In this document: in pieces, positions 17,095 through 59,440 of the stretch
Layout: the number at the start of each line of letters is the position of its first letter
Position numbering within the stretch: position 1 is the first letter of the stretch
DNA from: Nemertoderma westbladi
Taxonomy: Eukaryota > Animalia > Xenacoelomorpha
Length of the DNA stretch: 64,000 nt
Reading direction: 5' to 3'
Assembly: GCA_032718475.1 (NCBI GenBank)
Contig: JAUCBJ010009040.1
Span: forward strand, 977-64,976
The notes under the pieces: generated by a model
What the model saw: only the letters and a program-made list of their open reading frames with translations
The model's database searches: none
Told to the model about the DNA's origin: nothing
Program-made: the position numbers and the translations under genes

Positions 17095-17172
17095 CACGTA
17101 TTGACATGTATTTTAGTGAAACGTATTTTAGTGACAAGTATTTTAGTGACACGTATTTTAATGACACGTATT
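17095..17172. repeat. 15-bp tandem repeat gtattttagtgacac (inverted copy ~62612-62698)
   Basis: 4-5 direct copies visible. Confidence 0.85.
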
Positions 17173-17979
17173 GAAATTAATATTACTCTACGTCCTACGA
17201 TACGTGAATTATATCAAATTTTGTCAACTACACGGAAAAACCAATAAGGACATAAAATCAGGTTAAATTAGTTAATCTTTTTATTATCATATTTGCGCTA
17301 CTTGTTTTTTTCGTGCCCCAGGGGGCACATTCAAAATGACCAGAAATTTTCTCGAATGTTATATTTGAGTTCTATAATCGCGATCAGCATCCAAAAAACC
17401 GCTATATACCGAAAAATAAATTTATTCTAGCGAGTCATAATTAAGACAATTTTAGCACGAAAAATCATTTTTTATGGGTGCAAGAAAGGGACCACAGCAC
17501 GAAAACTAACTCAGCCATAAATTATTGATATATTTGAAGCAGAGACAGTTTCACCTCCATTCTCCGTGGCTGAGCCAGAATTGGCTGAGAATGGGCAACC
17601 GGGCTGGAGGCCACAATAATTATAAAATTATTAGCCAAAATAATATAATTATAAACCGCAACTATTAAAAACTGTGAAATTAATATGTTTTGTTATTAAA
17701 TTATATTATTATGTAACAAGTTAAAAAATATATGTGCCTGTCCCAAAGCCCTTACATTACGTGTCCCAAAATAATACAGATTACATAACAACTGTGCCAT
17801 TTAAGCACTTCGGCTACTTTTAAATCTGTATTACTGATATACTAAGTGTAATTTACTTTAATTAATTATTTTTCCTTACCTATAATTACACTTTTATTTC
17901 AATTTAGATAATTCTACCTTCCTGGCTGATAATTTACTTTAATTAATTATTTTTCCTTACCTATAATTACACTTTTATT

Positions 17980-19478: not shown

Positions 19479-19528
19479 TTTCAATTTAGATAATTCTACC
19501 TTCCTGGCTGAATTAAATAAAATAAGTA

Positions 19529-20644
19529 AGCAAGTCGTTAGACTTGATTACTGTAAGAAAAAAAGGCTACTGACCTAGAGCAAAAACGGCTCTAACGATT
19601 TTGATGAAATTTTGCATGGAACATGAAAATGGATTTCTAAGGGTACTTGTGAAATCGCGGTTTAAATTGAAACATCTCGACTTGATTTATTTCGAAAAAT
19701 AGCCCCAAAACACTAAAATTGCCATAGGCGCAATGATAAAACACCAGCTGGCACTCATGAAAAATGTATAGAGATGGCCTGGTAATGTATTCAATAGGAA
19801 GGGCAACTAACAAAGAAGTACTTTGTGTGCCAAGTTTTATTATCACTCTATTCTACAACCCAGACAGTAATCAAACAAAACATTAACTGGTTTAGTTGGC
19901 TATTGCAGTCTCAGCTGAATAACTCTTCCCAAAGCATCCTTGGGCCTTGCTATATAATTAATTGGCGTGCAAGCTAAATGACTGTTAGTTAAACAGTGTG
20001 TTGGCTACACAGTGTATTGTAATATGCTCTCATCGCATTATTGTTTTATTTTGAAATCTCTGTGCCAACATTAATACTGTGGAGGCTGTATGCTTATAAG
20101 GCTGAATGTTTACTCAGCCTCATAATGATTCTCCATAAGGCTAACATTATAGTTTGAAATATAAAAATCTGTTATAATAATAATATAATTGTTATATTTA
20201 ATTAATAACGTGGTTTACATTGAACAGTGTAAATTGTTAATCGCGGTTTACATTGAAACATCTCAACCTGTTTTATTTATTACAAAAATAAGAACGAATT
20301 TGTCTTATCACTTCTTTTGCGCGATTGTATATATTGAATTCATGGCAACTGCTGTTATTATTATTAAACAACGACTCGACTACTCTAACTCTCTGACTAC
20401 TCTATCCTATAGAACAAAATAATCATTTCGCTAACTGCTCTCTATCTTCTATAATCACAACAGCTTTTATAATTCATTAGATGATTACAACATAATAATT
20501 ATAGTTCGAAGTTGTCTAGAAAATTTCTCGTACACCACCGGGACTACCCTCACACTAATTGATTATCAGACAGAACAAAAAGCTTTTACTTGATTCGTAC
20601 TGTCTCCTACGACTTGCTTTACGGGCCGCTAGGCCCGTCTCTAG
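19529..20644 (+). mobile_element. HINE/DINE-1-like element, copy 2
   Basis: Same 5' end agcaagtcgttagacttgattactgtaag; 3' cgacttgct + hairpin acgggcc-gcta-ggcccgt + ctctag. Absent from the inverted paralog. Confidence 0.8.
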
Positions 20645-21873
20645 TTATTATTATTGCTAGAACCACAAATAAAATCCGTTTCTATGGAGAACAGCTTAAC
20701 CTTGGAAGCGCAAGGTTACAACGTTCAAACAACGGAAGTAGAAATGGAAGGACGGACAATACTAAGGTGTATGCCAAAGCTAACAGATGTAGTGGCTCGA
20801 CCCAAAAGTCATAACATTCATAGGTAAATGTATCAACAAAGATTTCAGCATTAGTTTAAAATTAATCATTAAATATTATTGTCATAATATATTTCGCGAA
20901 TATAAATGAATTTCCTTGACCTAGAGACAAAATTACTTAATTACTTAAAACATTTAATATTTTGTGACAAACAAGAGTTTCTGTCACAAATGGGTGTAAC
21001 AATATCAGTTAGAACATTAATCTAACTTAGTGGGTTAGGAGAGCAAAAATCGAACTTACTAAAAGTTAACAGTGACAGTTAATGTTTGTAACACAAAACT
21101 TTACATTAATCTTTTTTCATGTTTACGATTTTTAACATTAACTTAATTCACGTAAGGATAAAAAGTACATCAATAAAATAATCATGGTATATATTGAATG
21201 TATTTTTCATTGTTTTAACATGTACAATTATTTCATAACAAACATACGAATATATAAAAATAGAGCCAGCGAATGAATATGTACTGCAATAAGTTTGGTC
21301 GGTGTAACATTCCTCCTACAACCAAAGAGACTACCGGAATATCTAACCATTTATTTGTAATAATTGAATAAAATATATAAATTATCAAACACGTTTAAAA
21401 CAGCTGATGTTACATAATATAATGGGGCATTTTAATCTAAATACTAAATACCTAAACAATATACACAATAACACAGAAATTAGTATCTGTAGAATAACTT
21501 TATAGAATAATAAAGAATATTATAGAATATTAACGTTCAATAAAATAGTAGTCTATGGATAGTATTGTGTTAATTAGGGATGCAACACAGCTCCGGCTCC
21601 GGAGCTCCGGCCCATTATACTGGCTCCGGCTCCGGGTAAATAAATCCGGAGCTTAACATGTTGAAATTCGAATAAAATAATAAAGTTTTTTTATTTATTT
21701 GTGTGAAATTAATTTCGCACTACCAAATCGCCATGGCGACATATTTCCCATCGCAGTGCGACATTATTTCTCAGTAAGTCCCTACGCAATACATTTTAAT
21801 ATGTTATGTCCAGTAGTTCCACGTATTACATGGGAAAAAGTATAACTTTTTTCACATTAAATAAATAAGTTTC

Positions 21874-23032
21874 TGTAAAAGCTTTTGCGGATATAATCAG
21901 TCCCCTTGCCCGCAAAGTACCGTGTAGGTGTTTTAACGGACATAAAAGTCATTCTTCTGTATGTGTACTTTGGCGGACATAACAAGACACTAATGCCGCA
22001 ATGCGTCAAATCCTCTAGCACAGTGTAGCTTTGATGATTCAGATTACGACATCTACCAGCTGGTTTGCTGGCATGGAAACGGCCGTTGGATCTATGGTTC
22101 TTTGTTCAGCTTAACAGCCAATCAGGGCGATTTTCACTTTATGCATGGAGATACTCTGCAGATCGTACTGGGCGAGTTCAGTATTGGTTTTTCCTATGCC
22201 AAGAACACCGGCTTTGGAATCATTCTGTTTTCAGACTCTAGCAAAACATTAGTAGGCTTAGATTATAGAAACGTATAACTGTTATCAAGTCAAGTCACAC
22301 CACGGCACATATCTTAACATACCTCACTCATATTGTCAAACCTTTCACCGCATTATTTTACTGCTATTTACTGTTGGTTATTAATTGTATCAGTTGATTG
22401 AATATTGTTATACTTGGAGAATATCGATAAATAACCCAAAAATCCCAATCTTCTTGATACACTAAAGGTTAGAGAGACCGGTTACATATAGCAATTGCGA
22501 CTTATATTATCGTGGTTTTGGAGTGAATCTAATGCTATTTCATAGATACTACATGAGTCCATTGCTGTTCTCTTTATGTATGGTCAAATTCAGTGACTGT
22601 CGGCAAATCAGTGTGCAGTAGTGTGGTACCGGTAGTGTGCAAGAGTGATTGATAACTAAGCATCTCCTAAAGAATGCGCCTTATACATGAATCATAAGCC
22701 GTACCGTTGTGTTTAGTATAAGTCATAGCTCTGTTTACATACTTAGAGAGCCACGTCCTAAAGGAACTGTCAAAATTTCCCGAAAGTGAATAATATTTGT
22801 CAGAGATTATATATCAACGATCAATCGAATAATACAGTAGGCTTACACCGCAATAAGGTCTAAGCATCCGAATCCAGTCTCCCGGGTATATCCAGCGGGT
22901 GAATGATCGCGCATCGGCTGGCTTCGGCTAATGTAGTGCATCAAATATTGTCATAGGCTAAAGTCGATTTATAAACTGAAAGACATATAAATTTGGCAGG
23001 TTAAACTGCTGAAGGTCTTAAAAGCGCGAACA
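21874..23032 (+). repeat. 5' LTR of element 1
   Basis: tgtaaaagc...gcgcgaaca, matches 36150-37308. Confidence 0.97.
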
Positions 23033-23044
23033 ATAACAGTTATA
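23033..23044 (+). promoter_or_regulatory. Non-tRNA primer-binding site candidate ATAACAGTTATA
   Basis: Immediately follows the LTR-terminal CA; perfect complement TATAACTGTTAT at 22274-22285 inside the LTR; no TGG. Confidence 0.7.
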
Positions 23045-23383
23045 GCTTTCTTTATTGCCGTAAGCAATAAAGCTGAAGTACCGGTCGACCGGTAACCTGT
23101 AGGCCCAACTGCTCGAACCGGTACTGCTGTAGGCCGGTAGGCCCAACTGCCCGAACCGGTACTGCTGTAACCTGTAAGCCTGTAGGCCCAACTGCCCGAA
23201 CCGGTACTTATAGTACAAGTACATCAGTATTATTTCGATTGTGATATTATACAATGGTAGGCTGTTTAAGAGATTAGGGACTGTACACCCCTTGTTTCTA
23301 TTGGAGCTTATTTATTTCTGTCAGTTTTTATTTACCTGTAAGTTAATATTGAGCAGAAGACGTGTAAGCCTGCTCAGATTGTA

Positions 23384-23990
23384 CAGATAATTTGTAGGCT
23401 GGACTGTTGTCTGACTGTTGTTAGGTCTGGAGAGATTGCGGCGTGTGTAGAGTCTGTCCGATAAAGTGCCAGTTGGGAACGTAGGGGCATCTTGAGTTGT
23501 ATGGTAAACCCCCTCCGAAAGAATAAGTCGTCCTACTCGGTTAGAACGCATACTCACTAACCATTTCGGAATCTGCATATACTGTAGTTTATTTAGGCTT
23601 GATAGTAGTCTGCCAGTGTTTAGTCTGTATTTTGTATGTATAGGCCTAGTCTGTACGGGTAGCATAATATTTCTTATTCAGATAATTTGTAGGCTGGATT
23701 GTTGTCTGGCTGTTGTTAGGTCTGAAGGGACTGCTGCGTGTGTAGAGTCTGTCCGATAAAGTGCCAGTTAGGAATGTAGGGGCATCTTGAGTTGTAAGGT
23801 AAACCCCCTCCGAAAGAATAAGTCGTACTACTGAGTTAGAACGCATACTAACTAACCATTTCGGAATCTGCACATATTGTAGTTTATTTAGGCTTGATAG
23901 TAGTCTTCCAGCGTTTGGTCTGTATTTTGTTTGAGTAGTTTGTACGCGTAGCACAATATTTATTATTCAGAGTTTATGCGATTATTCGCA
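23384..23990 (+). repeat. ~296-bp direct duplication in the 5' leader of element 1 (also in element 2 at ~55790-56370)
   Basis: Two diverged consecutive copies starting cagataatttgtaggctgga. Confidence 0.85.
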
Positions 23991-25105
23991 ACATTCACAA
24001 CCCCAAGTTTATTCCTACAGTAATTGTGCTTGTTATACATACGGTTATAGTTAAATTAACCCCGGTACTACACGGGCTGCTTGGCGTAGGTAAAGACTGG
24101 TGATTTTGTGCCCTGGTCACTCCAGCAGATGCCGTGGTTCTTTTAACTGTTCAAGTATATTTAACTGCTGGTTATTTGTTATACAAGTACTTGTACCTAA
24201 TTTAGGGTTTAGTGTACAGTGCTTTCCTAAAGTAATTAGTGTGTAGGCAGTATATTTGTGTTGTAAAGTGGTTAATAGGCACGTTAGTTCTGGTAGACTG
24301 CGGTAATTAACCTCTAGGTAGGAACACTCCGTGAAACATAACGTAGTACTTATAGCGATATGGCTATAAGTCGCCAGACGGTGGTATTTTTCCTATCTGG
24401 ACAACGCAGTATATTTACTACTACTTTACTATTTTCAAATACCGTAGTATCATGTCCGTTGTAATAACCAGATATTCTAACCCTTTGTTAGGCTGGTTTG
24501 TAGTTCCCTGTCAAATTACCCTAAAAATTCGTACGTATACTTTTTGTGTGTTTATTTAGAGATTGTAATCTCACCTTATATTGTACGTAATTCGTAGCTA
24601 AGTAACTTAGGCCAGTAGAATTATTTGTTTTAGTGTCCAATAAGTAGCACTTCACTGAGAGCGCACAGCTGCTGTGTAGTGATTGCTTTCCAGAAATAGT
24701 AACATCTATTTCAATAGAGAAACAAAACCCCTCATACGGGTATATATCTTTTAAATCAACTCAAAGGTTTATAAACTAGTAGGCCTGTCGTACAACAATT
24801 AGGTCTTAATATCAGTTGGACTACTGCTTGAATAACGGTAATAAAGTAAACTAATATCTATCTATAGAGTATCTACTACTAGTATCTATAATAGGCTTAT
24901 TATATATTTGTATATATTTGCGCTGAAATTATATACCGGTATTCTGTGACAAACCTAGTCTGCAATACTTATTTATACTATAAGTGTATACCGGTATTTT
25001 AATATATTGTAATTGATTACCGGTACTAGGCCAACAGTCATACTGAATTACTAGACTTGCTTTAACTGTAACTATAGCAGTAGGCATCCAACTGTATAAA
25101 CAAAT

Positions 25106-28100
25106 ATGTCTGACACAAAGCAAAACCTGTCAGACAGTCTAATCGATACAACCATTTGTGACCCAGATAGGAGTGTGGAACGTTTAAGACCGAAGTTCAG
25201 CTCACCTCCTACTGTAAGAAATGTCATCCCTCCAGTAGTAGTATCAGACCCTAGGCTAATCCAACACCTTAGGTCTATCATCGGCACTTGGGCCCAAGTC
25301 AAGCGGGATCAGGAAGCAGCTGTTAAACAGCAACAACATCCTAGCCAAGAACTTAGATCCCAGCGACCCGATAGCTCCAGTAGTTCAGATACTGTAGAGC
25401 TGACCCCCGAACGCGGAGTGAAGATGGCAGATACGGTTTATTCGGATCCCCTTCTCACTCTTCCTGCAGCAGTACTAACTACGGTATTGATTGCGGTGGA
25501 GGAACACCAAGTCGATTGGGCGAGAAGTAAGCGATCGACACAAGACAGTTATGCGGGATACGTAAGGGAAGAATTGATGTCTATTGTCGAGTCGCAATGG
25601 AACTTCTCTGGACCCGGACTCCCGTTAGACTTATCAGAAGCTACCTGGGAAGACATACACAGGATGGGAGTGACAAAAAACACAATGGATCCAGCTGTTT
25701 GGAAGAGGTCGGCAGCAGGATATGTACAGGGATTCTTCGGCTCCTTGGAGCGATTAGAGGAACAACTGTTTCGACAACCCCAAGGACCTCAAGAGCAGGA
25801 AGAGCTGCTTTATCAAGTACGCGAAAGAACTCTACGCATTAGACTAATCTTATCGGCCTTTGAGGAGGCTTCGAAAAGAAGACAGGACACGTCGTTGCAA
25901 GTTGCTGTCAAGACTTGGTTCCAGCGGGTAGGTCTCAAGGTTCAAGAAACGGCGCAGTGGAAATTTCAGCTGGCTGAGCGACCAACCTATGCAGAATCCA
26001 CCGACGCCACCTTTTCTCAAGTGGAAAGCGAAGTGACAGCAGAGAAACCGCAAACGAGAGACGCTATCAACATCTATCTGTCAGACTATCAGCGGTTCCT
26101 GGATGATAAAGAGTTGAGGAGACGTCTGTCTGGACTTCGCCCTGATAGTGAAGGAGCCAAGCTTGTGTTGGACTCAATCGATGCAGAAATGTTAGCCGCA
26201 AACCAAGCTAAATTTGATGAACGACTCCGCCTCGCTAGAGTCCAAGAAGAACAAGTAAAGAAAAAACGAATAGAAGACAGAAAGGCAACAGCAGTAGCAG
26301 CGGCAATTGCAACGGCCGAAGCGGAAAGAAAGGCGGCAGAAGCAGCGGCAATGGCAACGACCGAAGCGGAAAGAAAAGCGGCAGTAGCAGTGGCAGTGGC
26401 AGCGGCCAAAGCGGAAAGAAAAGCAGCGGAGGCAGTGGCAGAAGCAGAACGGAGAGCGTCTGAAGAGACCACCCAACTGGAGTTGGAAAATCTTCAAGAG
26501 ACGCAAGACTATATAAATAAACAGTTAACAGCTAGTCAAATGCAGATGATGAGTCGATCTACTCCCAAGCGACAGGGATTTACATCCTGTGATGAAGGCG
26601 ATACCACCGATCCTGAAGGCGGAGGACATAGATCTCGTCTAAGTAGGCGTAGAAGAACGTCTCACCGTCAGAAATTGCCTGATTTGCCTCCAGCTGTTAG
26701 AAGACAACTAGCTAGCACAGACTTAGGTAGTACAGAACCCACAGACCTAAATATTACTGTAAACAGACTCCCTACTATAGTAGATGAGCCTGAAATAATT
26801 AGGCCTGTTCTCGAAGCCACCCCTTTGGTGAGAGAGACCCCTGTACTCCCCGAACCTACCACCAAATTCCCTTTGCACAGTACTAACTGCCTGTACCCGG
26901 TGGTGCAGCCCAGGAGAATGTCCCGGTCCTGGACGCCGAGAGAGAAATCCAAGATTTGTCTCCCGTCATCCCGCGTCGGCCCGCTACTATGTTGGCGACT
27001 CCCGCTTCAGCGGTCGAGTGGGTAGATGAGGGACGGCGGGAGATGGGTCTCTTGCTTGGGCAGCTGAGGGAACACTGGGAATGTTCCTCCCGGCAGGTCC
27101 GAGATTTAGAAGGGACTGTCCACCAGCTCAAGGGAACAGTAAGGGAAAGTAGGTTAGAGTTGCAAGAAGTGCAGCAAAGTATCGCGCTAGAACGCGACAA
27201 ATTAGTAAATATACAAAAGGGTATACCAACACCCCCTGTAACCATGTGTCAACCCGTTAGGTCTGAAGTATTTCATGCGCAAAGTGTGGAGCCTACACGC
27301 GTCTATACTGCTAGTGAAGTAGAAACTCCTATAGTAAATCCTATTAAGGGTGATTATAAACCTGTTGATAATAATATTCCATATAGACCTGATAATAATC
27401 CGAGAAATTTATATACCGATAATTCGATATTAAATAACACGATGGTCCAAGAAAGCTTTACGCGTCAGATGGCTAGAACAGAAGCCTGTCAAGCGGTCAA
27501 AGTGGGAGAGATCGTCAAATTCAATGGAGATGAGATTAAATGGTTACCTTTTAATGAATATTATAAAGATAACAATATACAGAACTCTGTACTATCTAAC
27601 GGAGAGAAACTTAGATTCCTCATCGAGTGTTTAGAAGGACCTCCCAAGTTAATGGCATTAAAGTTTATTGGACATCCAGATGGATTAAGACAAGTTTGGG
27701 ATACATTAAACATCAGGTATGGTAATAGGAATAACATAGCTAAGTATTTGTATGCAAAATTAGTAGCCTGCCGAAAGTTCATTAGTAGCGGGATTATAGA
27801 GTTTTCCGATGATATTCAGGAGGTCTGTAGACAATTGGATTGGCTAGGTAAGTCTCATGAATATCAGAGTTCCATGGTTATTGGAGCCGTAGCCTCTACT
27901 TTACCAAAGGGTGGAGTAGGTACACGCTGGGATAAAAAAGTGTTGTATATGATGGAGCAACAACGACGAGACCCTACCATGGCTGATCTCATGTCATTCT
28001 TAGATGGAGAAGTAAAATTACAACTCATAAAGCAGTCCCGAGAGAAAACACTGGAAAATAAGGTAAGTGAGAAACCCGTTTCTAGGAGAAAAGTAACCCC

Positions 28101-31100
28101 AGTGTGTTATACTGACGATGGCGAAAGCCAAGCTTCTCAAGAAGATGACAGCGGGAAGGACACTGACTGATCTTACTATGTTCACAAAACGGCGAAAGAC
28201 GTAAGTAAATACAAGTCTCGAACCAATGATAGGAGAGAACAGGTAGCCAAGACTCCTCCTCAGTCTCTTAACAGAATTCACGGAAGAAAGCCCGAAGAAA
28301 GAACGAGAATGCATAACGTTATCCAAGGTAAAGTGAGTAACATCAAACCAAACTGTGCGCTGTGCGACGGGCCCCACCGTTTGAGTGCGTGTGCTGAATT
28401 CCTAAAGAAATCCCTGGTAGACAGACGTGAAGTCATGTGGGATAAGCGGTTATGCTATAATTGCCTCAGACAAGGACACCAACGGCGAACCTGTTACTCC
28501 GACGTAAGGTGTGCAAATTGCGGTGCGAAACATCACATCTTGTTACACAGTGAATTCGAACAAAACAGCCCGAGTCAGGTAAGTGAGCCCAAACTACATG
28601 TCCAATTCAGTGATGTAAATGACACTGATCAAGGATCTGAGATGGAAGGATTCTATACGGACGAATTCTCCGATGCCAACGAATCCTGTTACCTAATAAA
28701 TACCGCAGTGTATCGAGCACTTACGTATGAAAAGGACACCGATAATGAGTTCCCCCCAACTACCTTTGACAGACAACCATCTTGGAAGGCTCCAACTTCC
28801 AACGTAGGAATCCGAGAATTTCCTGTAGTGCAGGTAAGAGTTTACGGTCCTGACAAAAGTTACATAGTGAACGCCCTCCTTGACTCCGGCAGCACAAGAA
28901 CATTCATCGACCAATAACTAGCCGAAGACATCTTTGCTGGACAACCCAAATTCCAAACTAAGTTAAACATGTCAGGAATTATGCAGGTTTGGAAATCTAC
29001 CATAATTGCAGATTATTATGTAGGTGCGTTATCCACCCCCCAGGATAAATTAGGAGTACAAAGTATAAGGTCAGTAAAAATGGTGGCGATAAAGAACTTT
29101 GCTACTACCCAAGTAGAACCTTATAACTGGGACGAGGACGAGTGCATCCAGCAACTTAAGATACCTCGATTCCACACAGATTATCCTGGAGTGCAAATAC
29201 TCATCGGCCAAAACGCGCATGAGGCGCTCGAGACATTAGAGAAATGGCCTGCTCAACCGCAGCCACTACAAACCTATGCGGTAAGAACTAGAGTAGGTTG
29301 GTACTTTACTAGCCCTTCCCGTAGAACTCTCAAAGAGAGATTATCCCAAGAACAAGTATACCAAGTAAATGAATGGGAAGTGGAGAGCAGTGAGGTGGAC
29401 GAACCAACTGAGGGAACACCATACTCCTCAGATAATGACAACATCTTCCAACTCTTCGACGAAGAGAACACAATCGACCTTCTTACAGAAAACGAAACTT
29501 GGCAAAACCAGGTGAACCTATGTCAACTGAGTCGCCCATCGGGACCAATTAACTACAATGACGAACTCAATGACGAGATAGAGCGCTACAACGCTAGGAC
29601 TCGGGACGAGCTCGCCGTACGATTCTTTACTCAAGAGGTGGTAGAGCCCAATTCATACGATAAGGCCCTATCGGTAGAAGAAGAAAGAGCCAAGCAGATC
29701 CAGGAGACAACTACACGTTTTCTAAAAGATCAAGGTAGATATGAAATTGGCCTACCATTTCGAAAACGAGAACCTAGATTTATAAACAACCGACCCTTGG
29801 CGGAGAAAAGAATCGCTCAATTACATCGAAGCCTTACGGCAAATGCTTCAGCTAAAGAAATGTACCAAACGCAGTTGAAGAAATTTATTAACAAAGGATA
29901 TACGGAGCGAGTACCGGAAGAAACACCCATAACGGAGAGAACGTACTATCTAACACATCATTACGTTCCCAAACCCGGTAAACCCCATGAAGTACGGGTC
30001 GTATTTGATGGCTCCGCCCTATACATGGGCCAATCCCTCAATTCCGAGTTGTTACCAGGACCCAACTTACTCCAATCCTTGTTGGGAATACTTTTAAGAT
30101 TAAGACAATATTCCATCGCATTCGCCTCCGATATAGAAGGAATGTTCTTACAAGTCAAGGCGCTGAATAGGGATAGAGACAGCCTAAGATTTCTGTGGTG
30201 GCCTGAAGGAGATCTCAACCAGAAACCGGTGGAGTACTGGATGACCATCCAGGCTTTTGTGATCATATCAAGCCCTTCAAACGCCTGCTCAGTGGTGCGG
30301 ACCACTGCGGATGACAACTGGGACGCCTTCTCTAAAGAGGTGATTGACAACATCAAACGGGATATATACATGGACGACAATCTAAAGTCCCTTCCATCCG
30401 TAGCAGAAGCCATTGATGTCGCGAAAGGAACGGTTGAGTGCTTGAAAAGAGGTGGATTTCGACTGACTAAATTCACCAGCAACTCCCGTGAGTTTCTGGA
30501 ATTGATACCGGTAGAAGACTGAGGAGCAAAAGGCCTAGACTTAATAAAAGACGATCTTCCAGAAACCAAGACGCTTGGCTTGAAATGGAACACTGAGAGA
30601 GATATCTTGTTTTTTCAGCTAAAACAGCGAGATAATCCAGTTTGGACCAAACGGATTTGTTTAAGTATCCTGAGCACTTATTTCGATCCATTGGGATTTA
30701 TTAGCCCAGTTATCTTGATTGCTCGGAGTTTAGTACAACAAATGTGGCTCGAAAACCATTCATGGGACGATCCACTTAAGGGAGAACTATTAAAGAAGTG
30801 GATGAAATGGGAAGATTCTCTACCAGCCATCGAGAACTTTATAATTTCCTGTTCATATTTTGGTCATGTTCTCCCTACGTATTCCTATCAACTCCATGTG
30901 TTTGGAGACGCTAGCGATATGGGAATAGGAATAGTAGCATACCTGCGAGTCGAAACTCCGGATGGAATCAAAGTCGCCTTGGTTACCTCTAAGGCATTGA
31001 TTAACATCAAGTTGAAGGTTCCTCGAGCGGAGTTAAAGGCGGCTCTATACACTACAGCCATCGGCCAGAATGTAACTGAACAGATCGATTACCCACTGGA

Positions 31101-33252
31101 GAAAACTGTTTACTGGACCGATGCTTTACTCGTGTTGAGTATATAACCAATGAAGTCTGTCAGTTCAGCGTCTTTGTTACCAACAGAGTAGCCATTATTC
31201 TTAGTCGCACGAAGATAGATCAATGGAGACATTGCCCTGGTACGATTAATCCAGCCGACATCGCCTCCAGGGGAGCAACTCCACAGGAACTGATAGATAC
31301 TCCAGATTGGTTGGGTGGACCCGACTTCCTGAGCAAGGAAGAGGATGAATGGCCTCCTTACCTTACTACGGCTGAGATCAGACAAGCCAAGGGAGCGGAG
31401 AAAGTTAAACCTAAAACCCGGGCGAGTAAATCGAAGTTATTTAAACCGGTGATAGATCTATCTGTATTACATACTTCTGGAAACAATGCTTCGGATCCAC
31501 AATCCCTCACCACAAATAAGTCTGTTGTGGAAATTAGAGATAGAGATTGGAAATCTAGAATACCAGACGTCTCGCAAGGAATCTCACCCTTGCTGCAGAG
31601 AGCGATACATCAATATAGTTCCTGGAATCGGCTCTGTAAGGCCGTCACATATTTAAAGCGATGTTTTTATCATCATTACTCCAGGACGAAGACCACTAGT
31701 GATACCGCTCCATTGACATCTGCGCAAGTTCATGTTGTTAAAGATCTTCCCAAATATAAGATATCCGACCGGTTTCTAAAAGAGAAGATCAGTTACCCGG
31801 AGCATGAAGAAACCAATAAGCAGATACTGAGACTCCTGCAATGCTATGAGGATTCCGATAAGTATTTCCTGTTGTTGAGAAATCCACAGATGCGCTTAAG
31901 GGATCGCTTCTCTAGCACAATTATAGATGGGTTAATACGTGTTGGAGGAAGACTCACTAATGCTCCATCATCCTTTGACACTAAATTCCCCATACTCATT
32001 AGAAATCTTGAAGTACAAATCAAGATGATTGTAGATGTTCACAGTAAACTTTATCATGCTGGTAGAGAACAACTTCTTAGCAAAATTCGAACTCGCTATT
32101 ATTTTTATAAACCCCGTAGAGCTCTGAACCAAGTTCTTAGGAACTGCATACCCTGTAGGAAAGCATTCAGTAGGCCTTTAACACAGCGAGAGGCAGAATT
32201 ACCTAGGGAACGAGTAAGCTTCTATGAACCACCCTTTACTAATACCGGTGTGGATTTATTTGGCCCTATTGAAGTATATCGTGCTAGGACTATAGTCAAG
32301 AGATGGTGTGTCATCTTTGTCTGCATGACTTGTAGAGCTATCCATCTCGATATGGTGAACGATCTATCTACCAACAGCTTCGTCTTAAGTTTACGCCGAC
32401 AGATCGCTCGCTTCGGAACTAGTAACACGATGAGATCTGATAAGGGAACGAACTTCATTGGTGCCAACAACGAAATCCAGGCTTACGTAAAGGACTGGAA
32501 CCAAAGACAGGTGGATGATCAGCTAAGGATAACAGCGTCTAGCTGGACCTTCAATGCCGCCGACGCCCCTTGGTGGGGAGGAAGTTGGGAGAGATTAATT
32601 AGAAGTGTCAAGACCGCATTTCACTTTATAGTGCCGTGCTGCGCGTATCTCACCGACGAACTTTTGCGGACGTTAATGGAGGAAATCGCTGCCTATCTCA
32701 ACGAGAGACCGCTTATGCCAGTCTTATCGAGTCCCGATTCCCTGGAAGCGCTAACACCCGCGCACTTCCTACTTAAGAAACCTGTAGCCATGCTCCCACG
32801 ATCGGAGATCGCTGACGGAGACGAATACTGCCGTCAAACTTGGCAACTTATGCAGTTGCTATCCCGTCGTTTCGCTGACCATTTCGAGAAACATTATCTG
32901 CCCACGCTACAACTTCGAACTAAGTGGTTTGCGCAGCAAGAAAACGTCAGCGCCGGAGACATGGTGCTTATTGTAGATTCAGACCTTCCACGTAAAACGG
33001 TGTCAGACAGGTCGTATCATCGAGACTCACATCTCGGATGATGGTTTAGTGCGCTCGGTAGAACTCGTCATCATGCGGCGTAACTTCAAGAAACCAGGCA
33101 TAATCTTCGAGACGCAACAGCTCAACCGCCCAGTTGGTCGTTTATGTTTACTGGAAAGAGACCGAGAACTCTCCGGAAACTATGGAAGGCAAGACACTCT
33201 TCCCACGACCACCTCCCTAATTCCTCAAACATCTAGGGGCTCCCCAACGTAA
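25106..33252 (+). pseudogene. BEL/Pao gag-pol polyprotein, disrupted
   Basis: Three Zn knuckles (CALCDGPHRLSAC, CYNCLRQGHQRRTC, CANCGAKHHILLH), protease LLDSGS, RT (VRVVFDGSA, SDIEGMFLQ, YMDD), RNase H (FGDAS, PRAEL, WTDA) and integrase (H-H-CxxC, GVDLFGP, SDKGTNF, WERLI). Stops at 28168, 28915 and 30520; frameshifts at ~26886, ~31140 and ~32995. Confidence 0.95.
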
Positions 33253-36123: not shown

Positions 36124-36149
36124 ACTTGAATCCCATTTTCTGGGAGCGG

Positions 36150-37308
36150 TGTAAAAGCTTTTGTGGATATAATCAGTCCCCTTGCCCGCAAAGTACCGTG
36201 TAGGTGTTTTAACGGACATAAAAGTCATTCTTCTGTATGTGTACTTTGGCGGACATAACAAGACACTAATGCCGCAATGCGTCAAATCCTCTAGCACAGT
36301 GTAGCTTTGATGATTCGGATTACGACATCTACCAGCTGGTTAGCTGGCATGGAAATGGCCGTTGGATCTATGGTTCTTTGTTCAGCTTAACAGCCAATTA
36401 GGGCGATTTTCACTTTATGCATGGAGATACTCTGCAGATCGTACTGGGCGAGTTCAGTATTGGTTTTTCCTATGCCAAGAACACCGGCTTTAGAATCATT
36501 CTGTTTTCAGACTTTAGCAAAACATTAGTAGGCTTAGATTATAGAAACGTATAACTGTTATCAAGTCAAGTCACACCACGGCACATATCTTAACATACCT
36601 CACTCATATTGTCAAACTTTTTACCGCATTATTTTACTGCTATTTACTGTTGGTTATTAATTGTATCAGTTGATTGAATATTGTTATACTTGGAGAATAT
36701 CGATAAATAACCCAAAAATCCCAATCTTCTTGATACACTAAAGGTTAGAGAGACCGGTCACATATAGCAATTGCGACTTATATTATCGTGGTTTTGGAGT
36801 GAATCTAATGCTATTTCATAGATACTACATGAGTCCATTGCTGTTCTCTTTATGTATGGTCAAATTCAGTGACTGTCAGCAAATCAGTGTGCAGTAGTGC
36901 GGTAGCGGTAGTGTGCAAGAGTGATTGATAACTAAGCATCTCCTAAAGAATTAGCCTTATACGTGAATCATAAGCAGTACCGTTGTGTTTAGTATAAGTC
37001 ATAGCTCTTTTTACATAGTTAGAACGCCACGTCCTAAAGGAACTGTCAATATTTCCCGAAAGTGAATAATATTTGTCAGAGATTATATATCAACGATCAA
37101 TCGAATAATACAGTAGGCTTACACCGCAATAAGGTCTAAGCATCCGAATCCAGTCTCCCGGGTATATCCAGCGGGTGAATGATCGCGCATTGGCTGGCTT
37201 TGGCTAATGTAGTGCATCAAATATTGTCATAGGCTAAAGTCGATTTATAAACTAAAAGACATATAAATTTGGCAGGTTAAACTGCTGAAGGTCTTAAAAG
37301 CGCGAACA
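36150..37308 (+). repeat. 3' LTR of element 1
   Basis: Matches the 5' LTR; followed by TSD gtttc. Confidence 0.97.
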
Positions 37309-45001: not shown

Positions 45002-46160
45002 TGTTTGCGCTTTTAAGACCTTTGACAGTTTAACCTGCCAAATTAGGATGTCTTTTAGATGATATATAGTCTTTAGCCTATGACGAGTATTTGATACACT
45101 ACATTAGCCGAAGCCAGTCTATGCGCAATCATTCACCCGCTGGATATACCCGGGAGACTGAATTCGGAAGCTTAATGATTGATGGTGTAAGCCTACCGTA
45201 TTATTCGACTGATCGTAATATATAATCTCTGACAAATATTATTCACTTTCGGGAAATATTAACAGTTCCTTTAGGACGTGGCGCTCTAATTATGTAAACA
45301 GAGTTATGACTTAAACTAGACACAACGAAAAGGCTATAGATTCACGTATATGGCGCATTCTTTAGGAGATGCTTTGTTATCAGTTACAATCATACACAAT
45401 GCTGCACAATGCTGCACACCAATCTGCCGACCTTCACTAATTTTAGTCACATACAAAGAGAATAACAGACAATACATGTAGGGCCTATAAAATAGCATTA
45501 GATTCACTTCAAACCACTTAACATAGGTCGCAATCGTTTATCTGTAACCGGTCTCTCTAACCTTTAGTATATCAAGAAGGTTGGGTGTCTGACTATTGAT
45601 CAGTATTCCAAATATAATCTTCCATCAACAAATATAATGAATAGCCGACAGCAAAAGCAGTAATGTTAAGTAAGATATGCATGATATGTTTAGGTAAGCA
45701 TCGATAATGTAACTCGATAACAGATATACGTTCTATAATTAAGCCTACTAATGTAAGACTAAAGACTGAAACACGGAGGTGCCAAAAGCCGGTGTTCTTA
45801 GGCTCTGGGCAAAAACATAACACTGAATTCCTGAGTTTCTGTATCCACCTCCAACACAGAGACAAAAAACGCTCTGATTGGTCGACCGAACAACGAGAGA
45901 ACAAAGAAACAAAGAAATGTCGACGTGGCAATATCAGCTGTTAGCCGTCGTCATGGTAGCGACACTGTTTTCAAGAGTATCGAGCTTATTGCGTCCCGAA
46001 ATTGCGGATTATGTCCTCTAAAGTACAAATACAGAAGAAATGGCTTTTATGTCCTCTAAAACACCAGTACAGTAAGGACACGGCCTTTTTATGCCCAGTA
46101 AACCAACTACAGAGTACTTTACGGGGAAAATAACCGGCTAATTACGCAAAAGCTTTTACA
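45002..46160 (-). repeat. 3' LTR of element 2
   Basis: Matches 56638-57793. Confidence 0.97.
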
Positions 46161-49422: not shown

Positions 49423-52400
49423 TTACGTTATGGAGTCCCTAGATATTTGTTGGATTAGGGAGGTGGTCGTGGGAAGAGTATCTTGCCTTCCATAGTTTCC
49501 GGACAGTTTTCGGTCTCTTTCCGGTAAACATAAACGACCAGCTGGGCGATTGAGTGGTTGTGTTACTTTCTCCGCTCCCTTGGCCTGTCTAATCTTCGCC
49601 GGGTTAAGATGGGGAGGCCATTCATCTTCTTTACTTAGGAAGTCGGGTTCACCTAACCAGTCTGGAGTATCTGTAAGTTCTTGAGGAGTTGCTCCTCTGG
49701 AGGCGATGTCGGCTAGATTGATCGTCTCGGGGCAATGTCTCCATTGATCTACATTGGAGTTGATGTTGTCATTATCTGAGGAGTATGGTGTTCCCTCAGT
49801 TGGGTCGTCAACTTCACTGCTCTCCACTTCTCGTTCACTTAATTGATATACCTGTTCTTTTGGTAATCTTTCCATAAGAGTTCTACGAGAAGGGCCAGTA
49901 AAGTACCAACCTACTCTAGTTCTTCCTGCATAAACTTGTAGAGGTTGCGGTTGAGCAGGCCGTTTCTCCAATGTCTCGAGCGCTTCATGCGCATTTTGAC
50001 CGATGAGTATTTGGACTCCAGGGTAATCGGTGTTGAATCTAGGTATTTCAAATTGCTGGGTGAAATCGTTCTCATCCCAGTTGTAAGGTTCCACTTGGCT
50101 GGTCGCGAAGTTCTTTATCGCTAACATTTTTACTGACCTTATGCTGTGTTCTCCTAGTTCATCCTGGGGGGTGGACAACGCACCTACATAATAATCTGCG
50201 ATTACTGTAGATTTCCAAACCTGCATAATTCCTGACATGTTTAGCTTGGTTCGGAACTTGGGTTGTCCAGCAAAGATGTCTTCGGCTAGTTCTTTGTCGA
50301 TGAATGTTCCTGTACTACTGGAGTCAAGGAGGGCGTTCACTACATAACTCCTTTTAGGTCCGTGGACCCTTACCTGTACTACAGGAAATTCTCGGATTCC
50401 TACATTGGAAGGTGGTGCTTTCCAAGATGGTTGTCTGTCAGAAGTAGTTAGTGGGGGCTCGCTGTCGGTGTCTTTTTCATACGTAAGTGCTCGATACACT
50501 GCGGTATTTGTTAGGTAACAGGATTCGTTTTCGTCGGAGAATTCGTCCGTATAGAATCCTTCCATCTCAGAATATTGGTCAGTGTCGTTCACATCACTGA
50601 ATTGGACATGTAGTTTGGACTCACTTACCTGACTCGGGCTGTTTCGTTCGAATTCCGTGTGCAACAAGATATGATGTTTTGCGCCGCACTTTGCACACCT
50701 TACGTCGGAGTAACAGGTTCGCCGTTGGTGTCCTCGTCTGAGGCAATTATAACACAACCGCTTATCCCACATGACTTCACGTCTGTCCTTTAGTGATTTC
50801 CTCAGGAATTCATCACACGCACTTAAACGGTGGGGCCCATCGCACAGCACACATTTGGGCTTGATGTTACTTACTTTAACATGTGCTGTGTGGTGCACGT
50901 TCGTTCTTTCCTCGGGTTTTCTCACCTGAATTCTCTTGGGAGACGTAGGAGGAGTTTTTCTTACCTGTTCTCTCCTGTCATTGGTTCGAGACTTGAATTT
51001 ACTTACCTGGTCTTTAGGCGTTTTATTGACATAATAAGATCTTTCAGTGTCTTTCCCGCTATCCTCTCCTTGAGAAGTCTGGCTTTCGCCGTCGTCTGTA
51101 TAACACACTGGTGTTACCCTTCTCCTAGAAACGGGTTTCTCACTTACCTTGTTTTCCAGTGTCTTCTCTCTGGACTGCCTTAGGAGCTGTAATTTCACTT
51201 CTCCATCTAAGAATGACATGAGATCAGCCATGTTAGGGTCTCGTCGTTGTTGTTCCATCATATATAACACTTTCTTGTCCCAGCGTGTACCTACTCCACC
51301 CTTGGGCAAAGTAGATGCTAAGGCTCCTACAACCATAGAATTCTGGTATTCATGAGACTTACCTAACCAATCTAGCTGTCTACAGATCTCCTGAATTTCG
51401 TCGGAAAACTCTATAATCCCGCTGCTAAGAAACTTTCGGGGCGCCATTAATTTTGCATACAAATACCTAGCTATGTTAGTCCTATTACCATACCTGATGT
51501 TTATTGTATCCCAAACTTGTCTTAATCCATCTGGATGTCCAATAAACTTTAACGCCATTAACTTGGGAGATCCCTCCAAGCACTCGATGAGGAATCTAAG
51601 CTTTTCTCCGTTAGATAACACGGAGTTCTGTATGTTATCTTTGTAATATTCATTAAAAGGTAACCATTTCATCTCATCTCCATTGAACTTGACGATCTCT
51701 CCCATCTTTACCGCTTGACGGGCTTCGGTTCTAGCCATTTGACGCGTAAAACTTTCTTGGGCCATCGTATTATTTAATATCGAGTTATCGGTATATAAAT
51801 TTCTCGGATTATGATCCGGTCTATAGGGAATATCATTATCAACAGGTCTATAATTACTCTTAATAGGGTTCACTATAGGAGTTTCTACTTCGCTAGCAGT
51901 ATAGATGCGTGTAGGCTCCACACCTTGCGCATGAGATACTTCAGACCTAACAGGTTGACACATTGTTACGGGGGGTGTTGGTATACCCTTTTGTGTATTT
52001 ACTAATTTATCGCGTTCTAGCGCGATACTTTGCTGCACTTCTTGCAACTCTAATCTACTTTCCCTTACTGTGCCCTTGAATTGCTGAACGGTCTCCTGCA
52101 TCTGTCCGAGCAGGAGATCCATCCCCCGTCGTCTCTCATCCACCCATTCAACCGCCGAAGCGGGATTCGCCAACGTTGTAGCAGGCGGACGAGGGACAAC
52201 GGGCGACAAATCATGAATATTTCGCTCGGAGTCCAGGGCATGAACTGTCTCATGGGCTGTTCTGCTGGGCACAGGTAGCTTAGTGCTGTGCAAAGGGAAT
52301 TGAGAGGTAGGTTCAGGGAGTACAGGTGTCTCTACGACCGAAAGGGTGGCTTCGGGAACAGGCCTAATTATTTCAGGCTCATCTACTATAGTAGGGAGTC

Positions 52401-54075
52401 TTTCTATTGTAATTATTTGGTCTGTGGGTTCTGTACTACCTAAGTTGGTGTTATTTAGTTGCCTTCTAACAGCTGGTGGCAAATCAGGCAATTTCTGACG
52501 GTGGAATGTTCTTTTACGTCTGCTTATGTGAGATCTATTTCCTTTGCCTTCAGTATCGGTGGTATCGCCTTCCTCAGATGATGTATATCCCTGTCTTTTG
52601 GGAGTAGATCGATTCATCATCTGCATATTACTAGCTGTTAACTGTTTATTTATGCAGTCTTGATTCTCCTGAATATTTTCCAATTCTAATTGGGCGATCT
52701 CTTCAGCCGCTATCCGTTCTGCTTCTGCCGCTGCCATTGCCGCTTTTCTTTCCATTTCAGCTGCTTTTCTTTTCGCTTCTGCCTCTGCCGCTGCCGCTTT
52801 TCTTTTCGCTTCCGCTTCTGTCTCTGCCGCTGCCGCTGCCGCTTTTCTTTCCATTTCGGCTGCTTTACTTTCCTCTTCGGCTGCTTTCCTTTCGGCTTCT
52901 GCAGCTGCTACTGCTGCTTTCTTTCTGTCTTCTATGCGTTTTTTCTTCACCCTTTCTTCTTGGTCTCTAGCGATGCGGAGTTGTTCATCGAATTTAGCTT
53001 GGTTCGCCGCTAACCTATCCACATCAATTGCGTCCAACACACGCTGGGCTCCTTCACTATTAGGGCTAAGTCCATCTAGCCTTCTCCTCAACTCTTCATC
53101 TCCCAAAAAACGCTGATAGTCTGACAGATAGATGTCAATGGCATCCCTCTTATGCGGTTTCTCTGCCGTCGCTTCACTTTCCACTTGGGAAAAAGTAGCG
53201 TCTGTTGATTCTCCATGGGTTGAGCGCTCCTCCAGCTGAGCTTTCCACTGAGCTGTTCCTTGAACCTGGAGACTCACCCGTTGAAACCAAGTCTTTACGG
53301 CAACTTGCAACGACGTGTCTTGTCTTCTTTTAGAAGCCTCCTCAAAGGCTGATAAGATTAGCCTGATTCGTAGAATTCTTTCTCTAACTTGATAAAGCAG
53401 TTGTCCCTGCTCTTGAGGTCCTTGGGGTTGTTGAAACAGTTGTTTTTCTACTCGCTCCATAGAGCTGAAGAATCCCTATGCGTATCCGGCTGCGGACCTC
53501 TTCCACACAGCTGGATCGGTGGTCTCCTTGGCTACTCCCATCCGGTGTATGTCTTCCCAGGCAGCTTCTGATAAATCAAACGGGAGTCCGGGTCCGGGGA
53601 AGTTCCATTGCGACTCGACCATAGACTTCAGTTCTTCCCTTGTGTATCCCTCATAACTATCTTTAGTTAATCGCTTACTTCTCGCCCAATCGATCTGGTG
53701 TTCTTCCACCGCGATCAATAACCTAGTGAGTACGGCTGCAGGAAGGATGAGAAGGGGATCCGAATAAACCGCATCCGTCATCCTTGCTCCGCGCTCGGGT
53801 GTCAGCTCTACAGTATCTTCACTACTGGAGCTGTCGGGCCGCTGAGAAATAAGTTCTTGGCTCGCGGGTTGTTGCTGTTCCGCTGCTTCTTGGTCCCGCT
53901 TGACCTGAGCTCGAGTGCCTATGATAGACCTACGGTGTTGGACTAGCCTAGGGTCTGAGATTACTACAGTAGGGATGGCCTTTCTTACAGCAGGAGGTGA
54001 CTTAGACTTGGATCTAGGATGTTCTATACTTGGATCTGGGTCACTGATCTTTTTAAGACACTTTCTGACAGTCAT
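49423..54075 (-). CDS. Gag-protease ORF of element 2 lacking RT, RNase H and integrase (one in-frame TAG at 53476-53478)
   Basis: The 199-aa and 1345-aa ORFs are in the same frame (CAG in element 1 vs TAG here). Zn knuckles intact; protease motif LLDSSS; deletion junctions at ~49755 and ~49563. Confidence 0.85.
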
Positions 54076-56626
54076 TCTAACACTATCTAGGAGACTATCC
54101 GACAGTGATTGGGTTGTGTCAGAAATGTTTGATTGTACAGTTGAATGCCTACTGCTAGATTACAGTTTAAGCAAGTGTAGTAATTCAGCATTAACTGCTA
54201 GCCTAGTAATTAATTACCGATACTGCTACTCAGTGTAGCGTGATATATATATAATATTAGAATACCGGTATGCTTATAGTATATATAAGTATTATTAGTA
54301 ACTAGAATTAATTACAGAATACCGGTATGATTTCAGCCTAAATTTATATATATATAATAGGCCTATCGTGAATACCGGTATACAGCTTACACTTATAATG
54401 TATATATATAAGTATAATTACAGACTAGAATTAATTACAGAATACTGGTATGATTTCAGCCTAAAATTTATAGAAATAAATATAATAAGCCTATTGTAAA
54501 TACCGGTATGTCAATTATTTTAGAATAATTGAATTTCTGAATTTTAAGGGTTACTTGGTTGCTTTAACTTACTTTATTACCGTTATTTAAGCAGTAGTCC
54601 AACTGATATTGAGACCTAATTGTTGTATGCCAGGCCTACTATTTATAAATCGTTTGAGTTGATTTATAATATATATATAGACCGTTTAATGGGTTTTGTC
54701 AATGTTTGAAATAAATGTTATTATCTCTGGGGGAGTCACTACACATAAGCTGTGCGCTCTCAGTGGAGTGCTACTTGTTAGACACTAAAACAAATAATTC
54801 TAATTTACCTAAGTTACTTAATACTACAAATTACGTACAATTTGGGTTGAGATTACAATCTCTAAATAAACACAAAAAATTTAATTACAAATACACAAAT
54901 ACAAATTTTTAGGGTAATTTTACAAGAAGTCTACTAACCAGCCTAACAAAGGGTTAGAATATCTGGTTATTACAACGGACAGGTTACTACGGTATTTGAA
55001 AATAATAAGTAGTAGTAAATATACTGCGTTGTCCAGATAGGAAAATACCACCGCCTGACGACCTATAACCGTATCGCTATAGGTACTACGTCAGTGAAGT
55101 GCTACTTATTGGACACTAAAACAGATAATTCTACTTCCTAAGTTACTTATCTACGAATTACTTACGATACGGGTGAGATTAAATCTCTAATTAAACACAA
55201 CAAAAATATTACGTACGAAATTTTATGGTAATTTTACAGGGAACTACAAACCAGTCTAACAGAGGGTTAGATTTTCTGGTTATTACAATGGACAGGATAC
55301 TACGGTATTTGAAAATAATAAGTAGTAGTAAATACACTGTGTTGTCCAGATAGGAAAATACCACCGTCTGACGACCTATAGCCGTATCGCTATAGGTACT
55401 ACGTTATGTATCACGGAGTGTCCCTACCTAGAAGTTAATTACCGCGGTCTACCAGAACCAACGTGCCTATTAACCACTTTACAACACAAATATACTGCCT
55501 ACACTCTAATTACCTTCGGAAAGCACTGTACACTAAACCCTAAATTAGGTACGAGTACTTGTACAACAGATAATCAGTAGTTAAAAATACTTGAACAGCT
55601 AAAAGAACCACGGCATCTGCTGGAGTGACCAGTGCACAAAATCACCAGTCTTTACCTACGCCGAGCAGCCCTGATGTAGTACCGGGGTTAGTTTAACTAT
55701 AACGGTATGTATAACAAACACAATTACTGTAGGAATAAACTTGGGGATATAAATGTTGCGAATAATAGCATAAACTCTGAATAATAAATATTACGCTACG
55801 CGTACAAACTACTCAAACAAAATGCAGACCAAATACTGACAGACTACTATCAAGCCTAAACAAACTACGGTATATGCAGACTCCGAAATGATTAGTTAGT
55901 ATGCGTTCTAACCCAGTAGTACGACTTATTCTTTCACAGGGGGTTTACCTCACAGCACTTGAAGCCCCTACTTTCCTAACTTAGCACTTTATCGGACAGA
56001 TGCTCTACACACACCGAAATTTCCTCAAACCCAACAACAGCCAGACAACTATCCAGCCTACAAATTATCTAAATAAAATTATACGCTACCCGTACAGACT
56101 ACACAAACAAAGTACAGACCAAACGATGGCAGACTACTATCAAGCCCAAATACACTACAGTATATGCAGACTCCGAAATGATTAGTTAGTATGCGTTCTA
56201 ACCCAGTAGTACGACTTATTCTTTCACAGGGGGTTTACCTCACAGCACTTGAAGCCCCTACTTTCCTAACTAGCACTTCATCGGACAGATGCCCTACACA
56301 CACTGCAATCCGTTCAGACTTAACAACAGTTAGACAACAGTCAAGCCTACAAATTATCTGTACAATCTGAGCAGGCTTACACGCCTTCTGCTCAATACTG
56401 GCTTACAAATAAATAAAACTTGACAGAAATAAGTAAAATCTCAATAAAAAACCAGGGCTGCAGTCCCTGATTAATTATTAAGGCCTACCGATATAATTAT
56501 CAAAATCGAATAATACTGCTGTACCTATACTGTAAGTACCGGTTCGGGTGATCAGGCAGTCAGGCCTACAGGTTTCCGGTCGACCGGTACTTTCGACTTG
56601 ATTGCTTACGCCGCAATCCAGAAGCA

Positions 56627-56637
56627 ATATCTGTTAT
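56627..56637 (-). promoter_or_regulatory. Non-tRNA primer-binding site candidate ATAACAGATAT of element 2
   Basis: Adjacent to the 5' LTR end; perfect complement inside its own LTR at 57350-57360 (and 45717-45727). Confidence 0.7.
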
Positions 56638-57793
56638 TGTTTGCGCTTTTAAGACCTTTGACAGTTTAACCTGCCAAATTAGGATGTCTTTTAGATGATA
56701 TATAGTCTTTAGCCTATGACGAGTATTTGATACACTACATTAGCCGAAGCCAGTCTATGCGCAATCATTCACCCGCTGGATATACCCGGGAGACTGAATT
56801 CGGAAGCTTAATGATTGATGGTGTAAGCCTACCGTATTATTCGACTGATCGTAATATATAATCTCTGACAAATATTATTCACTTTTGGGAAATATTAACA
56901 GTTCCTTTAGGACATGGCGCTCTAATTATGTAAACAGAGTTATGACTTAAACTAGACACAACGAAAAGGCTATAGATTCACGTATATGGCGCATTCTTTA
57001 GGAGATGCTTTGTTATCAGTTACAATCATACACAATGCTGCACAATACTGCACACCAATCTGCCGACCTTCACTAATTTTAGTCACATACAAAGAGAATA
57101 ACAGACAATACATGTAGGGCCTATAAAATAGCATTAGATTCACTTCAAACCACTTAACATAGGTCGCAATCGTTTATCTGTAACCGGTCTCTCTAACCTT
57201 TAGTATATCAAGAAGGTTGGGTGTCTGACTATTGATCAGTATTCCAAATATAATCTTCCATCAACAAATATAATGAATAACCGACAGCAAAAGCAGTAAT
57301 GTTAAGTAAGATATGCATGATATGTTTAGGTAAGATCGTAATTAACTCGATAACAGATATACGTTCTATAATTAAGCCTACTAATGTAAGACTAAAGACT
57401 GAAACACGGAGGTGCCAAAAGCTGGTGTTCTTAGGCTCTGGGCAAAAACATAACACTGAATTGCTGAGTTTCTGTATCCACCTCCAACACAGAGACAAAA
57501 AACGCTCTGATTGGTCGACCGAACAATGAGAGAACAAAGAAACAAAGAAATGTCGACGTGGCAATATCAGCTGTTAGCCGTCGTCATGGTAGCGACACTG
57601 TTTTCAAGAGTATCGAGCTTATTGCGTCCCGAAATTGCGGATTATGTCCTCTAAAGTACAAATACAGAAGAAATAGCTTTTATGTCCTCTAAAACACCAG
57701 TACAGTAAGGACACGGCCTTTTTATGCCCAGTAAACCAACTACAGAGTACTTTACGGGGAAAATAACCGGCTAATTACGCAAAAGCTTTTACA
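56638..57793 (-). repeat. 5' LTR of element 2
   Basis: 1156 bp, TG...CA on the minus strand. Confidence 0.97.
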
Positions 57794-58772: not shown

Positions 58773-59300
58773 TGTAAAGGCTTTTGCGGATCTAGCTAGT
58801 CATTTTCCCCGCAAAGTACTCTGTAGGTGTTTTAGCGGACATAAAAAGCCGTTTTCTTACTGTGTAGGTGTTTTAGTGGACATAAAAAGCCATTTTTCTG
58901 TATGTGTACTTTAGCGGACATAACAAGCCATTTTATGCCGCAATACGCCAAAATACTCTTAATACAGTGTAGTTCAGATGACGACATCTATCAGCTGATA
59001 TGTCGATGTGGAGCTTTTGGCTTTCTTTGTTCAGGCTCACTCGACCAATCAGGGCGATTTTCATTTTATTTGTACAGAAGCCTATGGGAAATCGCGCAAT
59101 GCATGACGGTCTTTGTTTACCTTTTTTCCTGAGCCCAGAACATCGGCTTTGGAATTATTCTGTGTTTCAGACTTTAGCCAAACATTAGAACGGCTTTGAT
59201 CATAGAAACGTATAACTGTTATCTCAAGTCACAACTCAACATACAACTCAGCCCAGAACATCGACCTTTCACCGCATTATTTTACTGCTATTTACTGTCG
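58773..59300 (+). mobile_element. Truncated LTR (5' ~530 bp) of a third subfamily of the same BEL/Pao family
   Basis: tgtaaaggcttttgcggat..., CCAAT motif and gaaacgtataactgttatc retained; homology lost after ~59300. Confidence 0.85.
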
Positions 59301-59440
59301 GCATGTGGCATGATATTCTACTGTATAACCAAAACAATAACCTAAATTTAATAGAACAGTTTGATTACAGTATTATTTTTAGGAGTAATCAGCTGTTATT
59401 TGTGTCGATTTCCCGAAATATTGTTATTGCATAAATAAAT

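Follow-up and report, generated by a model that had tools for sequence, protein, structure and literature searches.

The window analyzed here, a 64,000-nt stretch of contig JAUCBJ010009040.1 from Nemertoderma westbladi, contains two related LTR retrotransposons in opposite orientation, which we call E1 (+ strand) and E2 (- strand). E1 (21874-37308, +) is 15.4 kb long and is flanked by a GTTTC target duplication at 21869-21873 and 37309-37313. Its 5' LTR (21874..23032, +; 1159 bp, TG..CA) and 3' LTR (36150..37308, +) have 25 mismatches in 1159 positions, and a polypurine tract lies at 36142..36149 (+). The gag-pol region (25100..33252, +) encodes DUF1759, Cys-His boxes, a protease motif, reverse transcriptase (RT, with YMDD), a Peptidase_A17/RNase H region, an integrase zinc finger, and DUF5641, and contains several stops and frameshifts. 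The ends of E1 were fixed by an empty paralogous site at about 60590-60594 (-) in an inverted paralogous segment. An inverted segmental duplication (16421-21651 and 37344-38119 versus 59792-64000, 95-99% identity) has E1 in one copy and the empty site in the other. The window also contains tandem units of about 2.27 kb with a 32-bp minisatellite (4100-13900) and reading frames with a fibrinogen C-domain (15140-15829) and an HDNR domain (63408-63890). ARAGORN found no tRNA genes in the window, nor in 35 loci holding relatives of these elements.

E2 (57793-45002, -) is 12.8 kb long with an AATGC target duplication. Its 5' LTR (56638..57793, -; 1156 bp) and 3' LTR (45002..46160, -; 1159 bp) differ by 8 substitutions and 3 gap columns. 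It is a non-autonomous copy with a gag-protease region (49423..54159, -), the RT and most of the RNase H and integrase having been deleted. Neither element has an intact pol, and both are dead or non-autonomous copies. Their family is very abundant in three DNA runs from one organism, and a third, truncated family LTR lies at 58773..59305 (+).

Pfam searches identified PF03564 (DUF1759), PF05380 (Peptidase_A17), PF17921 (Integrase_H2C2), and PF18701 (DUF5641) in the order typical of BEL/Pao. Because of these domains and their order, we assign E1 and E2 to BEL/Pao (Belpaoviridae), the group that an earlier note on this DNA had named. Pfam RVT_1 gave no match to the RT part. At E 1e-20 or better, a search with the RT part of E1 gave 772 relatives; among the 120 listed, 118 carry PF05380, identity to E1 is 36-48%, and the named sources are corals, molluscs, echinoderms, a tunicate, a brachiopod, and fish. 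With the Belpaoviridae (Semotivirus: BEL, Pao, Tas, Sinbad, Suzu, Dan, Flow), E1 and E2 share the order gag-PR-RT-RH-IN, DUF1759, Peptidase_A17, and DUF5641, as well as TG..CA LTRs (1.16 kb here) around gag-pol, a polypurine tract, and 5-bp target duplications. The ICTV profile describes BEL/Pao elements as tRNA-primed, as the earlier note had done, gives them a length of 4.2-10 kb and an 18-nt primer binding site (PBS) for tRNA-Arg or tRNA-Gly, and calls their replication "poorly understood" (PMC8742986). E1 and E2 differ in having no tRNA PBS, and E1 differs also in its 15.4 kb, which exceeds the ICTV range because of a gag extension and a 2-kb leader. The 18-nt tRNA PBS is a described trait; family membership rests on pol.

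The N-terminal extension of gag (25100-27000 and 52100-54159) is long, contains an Ala/Glu/Lys-rich repeat, and has no Pfam match. Between pol and the 3' LTR lie about 3 kb (33250-36140, +; 46170-49400, -) that are 86-89% identical between E1 and E2 and carry homologous broken reading frames. These frames had no Pfam match below E 0.1 and an atlas score of only 0.75; the stretch is possibly a decayed extra gene. A donor-like word, GTAAGC, is conserved at 23061-23066 and at the matching place in E2, about 16 nt past the PBS, as for the major splice donor of a long leader.

Primer binding sites and their complements in the LTRs

Directly after its 5' LTR, E1 reads ATAACAGTTATA (PBS, 23033..23044, +), the exact complement of 22274-22285 in the same LTR. 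E2 reads ATAACAGATAT (PBS, 56627..56637, -), the complement of 57360-57350. The LTR sites (22274..22285, + in E1; 57350..57360, - in E2) are the predicted self-primers, and each has a copy in the 3' LTR (36550-36561 and 45717-45727, respectively). Both PBSs start at offset 0 past the terminal CA. The TGG of a tRNA site was sought after both 5' LTRs and was absent from E1 and E2 alike, as the earlier note had reported, and all the strings that it quoted were found where it had placed them.

The longest reverse-complement match of the PBS within its own LTR was 12 nt for E1 (LTR position 401) and 11 nt for E2 (position 434). In 20,000 Markov shuffles, matches of this length had P values of 3.5e-4 (E1) and 1.8e-3 (E2), or 7.5e-4 and 3.9e-3 when offsets of 0-5 were allowed. 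An empirical null from 62,780 window positions gave 0.0019 for 12 nt and 0.0033 for 11 nt. Between E1 and E2, each 11-mer has a single difference, and the two differences fall at partner positions; this is the compensatory change of the earlier note, an A/T swap. Given one change in each 11-mer, we estimate the probability of such a swap by chance at about 0.03 (1/11 x 1/3) for what is one event in the window.

These values can be set against the reading that the match arose by chance or is a promoter palindrome (a TATA-like word) with no role in priming. The PBS of E1 is AT-rich and its core is almost palindromic, so that E1, taken alone, could equally be read as having a direct repeat with a single mismatch, and E1 and E2 are homologous, so that their two matches are not independent. 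E2, however, breaks the palindrome yet keeps complementarity. The P value of 0.004 or less for either element, and the zero offset from the LTR end together with the compensatory change, also argue against coincidence, which we consider very improbable.

Another reading is that the primer is a tRNA half, a tRNA fragment, or another small RNA of the host, and that the LTR pairing serves to mask the PBS as a regulatory or structural switch. Priming by half-tRNAs is known in Ty1/copia lineages, according to the available part of PMC6317226. Here, however, both PBS variants would need to be matched by a single RNA, and the sequence is AT-rich with no complement of CCA.

Conservation and folding around the LTR site

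E1 and E2 are 59% identical in the LTR further upstream, 82% over the 34 nt that precede the site (22240..22273, +), 92% at the site, 49% in the next 72 nt, and 81% thereafter. The third LTR keeps the E1-type site (59212-59222), has no PBS, and diverges one base after the site. In family contigs, the bin that holds the site (57351-57377) has a summed depth of 147,000-306,000, which drops to 7,000-12,000 in the bin directly downstream; at 22286-22287, three joints lead out of E1. Conservation thus ends at the 3' end of the predicted primer. When contigs of the three DNA runs were aligned to both LTRs, none of the variants listed (40 of 149 and 40 of 83) fell in the PBS or the site.

From its sequence, the conserved block at 22240..22273 is likely the core promoter. 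No TATA box is visible on inspection at about 30 nt upstream of the site. TATA-like words are found 10 nt upstream and at the start of the site itself (TATAA or TATAT). Because of this arrangement of TATA-like words, the site could lie in U3. Some 155 nt before the site, there is also a conserved CCAAT box.

The primer might instead come from the 3' LTR copy, with an RNA 3' end formed at a poly(A) site or by an internal cut and pairing back onto the PBS. The presence of the site in both LTRs fits this reading, as do the CA that follows the site in E1, an ATTATA word about 20 nt upstream, and the lack of AATAAA or ATTAAA in either LTR. E2, however, has CG rather than CA at this place.

Folding predictions gave the E1 helix between PBS and site a pairing probability of 0.84-1.0 for four different 5' ends. 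For the E2 helix, the probability was at best 0.25-0.39, with an RNA starting at the site, and it fell to 0.00 with each of three longer 5' ends; the helix was absent from the minimum-energy fold of E2. The E2 model favors a start at the site, yet the helix that it predicts is marginal. The loop from the site to the LTR end is 747 nt in the window versus 44-208 nt in the relatives discussed below. Overall folding of the two elements was unremarkable (z -0.76 and 0.23), which would also be expected of a chance match.

A start further upstream (e.g., near 22232) would allow a longer self-primer: RNase H would release about 50 nt from the 5' end of the RNA, and the 3' end of this piece would sit on the PBS. 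The conservation of the block before the site and of the CCAAT box would suit such a start. Beyond a small loop, AGAAA/TTTCT in E1 corresponds to AGAA/TTCT in E2, the lengths changing together, and this pairing is part of the E1 centroid fold. Extended imperfect pairing past the core helix was convincing by eye but failed its controls: the extension energy was no better than that of shuffles (E1 p 0.28, E2 p 0.23; 16 relatives, permutation p 0.06). The E2 helix, as noted, vanishes with longer 5' ends. Perfect helices end at 10-15 nt in all 18 elements listed for this comparison. A longer primer is therefore unlikely, although we give it more weight than any other departure from a primer made of the first bases of the transcript.

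Priming sites in distant BEL/Pao relatives

An alignment of RT sequences supplied relatives at 79 metagenome loci and 10 genome-bin loci, 25 of which were tested. The other 64 were without a definable 5' LTR or were duplicates; these include L001, dropped as belonging to the same family as L002, and L069, dropped because its end could not be defined. Relatives were also sought in viral contigs, where none were found. The ten contigs from prokaryotic genome bins (L080-L089) most likely reflect host contamination of the bins. In L010 and L011, one BEL/Pao element is repeated in tandem every 6138 bp, with shared LTRs. This array resembles the tandem Tf elements of an integrase-independent route described in the available part of PMC11042837, and could be an assembly effect.

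None of 17 relatives had a contiguous PBS match of at least 10 nt at the end defined by paired repeats. At several of these loci, the best short match started directly past a splice-acceptor-like AG. We tested for complementarity across a GT-AG junction at 13 loci with the LTR end taken from the paired repeat, allowing any GT as donor. A perfect PBS complement of 10-15 nt across such a junction in the element's own LTR was found at 10 loci (P 0.03 or less, 300 shuffles per locus). The best donor was GTRAG in nine of these ten, although GTRAG makes up only 28 of the 542 GTs, and in the tenth, L082, a GTGAG donor scores equally well. The three loci without such a complement were L064, whose end had been set wrongly, L089, which is degraded, and L068, which has TGG at offset 5. 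In a blind scan, 12 of 16 loci (four of the 16 shared with the first set) were positive, each with a score reached by none of 40 shuffles; the LTR end was here picked by score, and only the shuffles guard against circularity. With L064 counted from the blind scan, 20 of the 25 loci were of the junction type (16 lineages after near-copies were collapsed), one was tRNA-like, and four gave nothing (L022, L072, L074, L089). The pairing of the PBS with its own LTR that the earlier note proposed for E1 and E2 thus holds in both, as well as in 20 of the 25 distant relatives that could be tested. That a predicted intron splits the primer in the relatives was absent from that note, as was the lack of an intact pol in both window copies.

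The complementarity is specific to each element. A PBS-LTR score of at least 10 nt was found for 18 of 19 elements tested against themselves and for 7 of 342 foreign pairs; two of these seven are the sister pair L005/L020, and E1 and E2 each scored below 10 against the other. Between L082 and L084, covariation is seen at two positions of the primer. That 20 of 25 relatives repeat the pattern with letters of their own, against 7 of 342 cross pairs, weighs further against a chance match. It also bears on priming by a host small RNA, since E1, E2, and the 16 junction-type lineages carry many PBS sequences, each matched by its own LTR. One relative does point toward such priming, however. L068 has TGG at offset 5 (site at 56-80) and no self-complement, and its distance from E1 is similar to that of other relatives. 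Its site resembles one for tRNA-Tyr. The sequence of L068 suggests that both priming modes occur among these relatives; for E1 and E2, we consider a host RNA primer quite unlikely. Priming from the 3' LTR copy fares worse and appears highly doubtful to us: in L082 and L084, AATAAA lies past the primer end, which places the poly(A) site downstream of the primer, and the progeny of junction-type relatives would be expected to lose the intron if a spliced 3' copy were used.

The LTRs of E1 and E2 have no GTRAG donor, and their contiguous match exceeds any junction match. Judged by sequence, their family is the contiguous, intron-free form. A possible intron inside R-U5 would use AG/GT words at about 22470 and about 23000; there is no GTRAG donor, and its junction mismatches the PBS. 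The PBS of L021 starts with ATAAC at offset 0, as in the E1/E2 family. E1 grouped weakly with L068 and L021 in the RT tree, stood apart in the integrase tree, and had a long branch in both. An origin of E1 and E2 by intron loss was not adopted, and no direction is claimed, given the disagreement of the trees and the long branch of E1. By analogy, the relatives (42-46% RT identity) would support self-priming of E1.

Predicted self-priming and its known counterparts

Self-priming in some form is very likely for the E1/E2 family. We consider it probable that it takes the form known from Tf1, with the first 11 or so nucleotides of the transcript cut off by RNase H as the primer. The transcript would start at about 22275, at a T/A step present in both elements, and its 5' end would fold back onto the PBS. 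Cleavage by RNase H at the duplex end, after 22285, would free a primer that is extended into the terminal CA. Plus-strand copying of the primer would then regenerate the PBS, stopping at the RNA 5' end. Because the PBS would be regenerated from the primer, mutations in the site would be copied into it, which would explain both the covariation and the sharp length of 10-15 nt. In the junction-type relatives, the spliced 5' piece would be cut off, and the junction thereby kept out of strong-stop DNA. The intron could for this reason be inherited from the 3' LTR, whereas tRNA priming would erase it.

[quoted passage not shown] About half of Tf1 cDNA keeps a copy of the PBS at its 3' end, and the PBS starts with ATAAC (PMC11042837, in the part seen), which the earlier note had given correctly and which the window family shares. 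Tf1 and Tf2 of S. pombe, Tj1 of S. japonicus, and the Tf1/sushi Ty3/gypsy chromoviruses resemble E1 and E2 in having no tRNA PBS and a complement of about 11 nt from their own LTR adjoining the LTR end. The window elements differ from them in being BEL/Pao elements with Pao-type domains rather than a Ty3/gypsy chromovirus pol, and in their 747-nt loop; their start and cleavage are moreover predicted here. The relatives of E1 and E2 differ further in building the primer across a predicted intron. In the literature searched, we found no intron-spanning primer described for any self-primed element.

Self-priming has been reported for Tf1/sushi and predicted for the plant elements Tcn1 and TAR, as far as the available parts of PMC6317226 and PMC4600332 describe it. 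The definition used for plants is a 5' LTR complement of at least 10 bp to a region starting 0-5 bp past the LTR (PMC6317226, part seen), and the arrangement in both E1 and E2 falls within it, as in Tcn1 (Ty3/gypsy) and TAR/Houba/Osr-1 (Ty1/copia). Those elements differ in their plant hosts, in belonging to other superfamilies, and in having contiguous primers only. A term search of the main text of a BEL/Pao survey (PMC3118150) and of the Sinbad paper (PMC554778) returned no mention of PBS or tRNA, and the available portions of PMC3601003, PMC5443660, PMC8220671, PMC5341516, and PMC5445492 do not mention a self-primed BEL/Pao element. Titles and the beginnings of abstracts likewise yielded none, although supplements, Repbase, or subscription journals may hold one. 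What we propose is a known mechanism in a superfamily for which we found no description of it.

We are evenly divided over a broader proposition, that tRNA priming has been abandoned across a wide radiation of animal BEL/Pao elements, which would prime with the capped 10-15 nt of their own 5' end. In most lineages of this radiation, the spliceosome would join a first exon of 3-10 nt to the next, while the E1/E2 family would be intron-free and would have reached the ATAAC start of Tf1 independently. If this is true, splicing would act as a switch for retrotransposition, and an intron in the LTR would survive reverse transcription because its junction is cut off as the primer and never copied.

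If BEL/Pao elements do prime themselves, each of the three LTR superfamilies would have self-primed members, which would bear on the proposal, found in the available part of PMC3601003, that hairpin priming preceded tRNA priming. Self-priming would also explain why annotation based on tRNAs misses the PBS in many BEL/Pao elements, and these elements would likely be freed from control by tRNA fragments.
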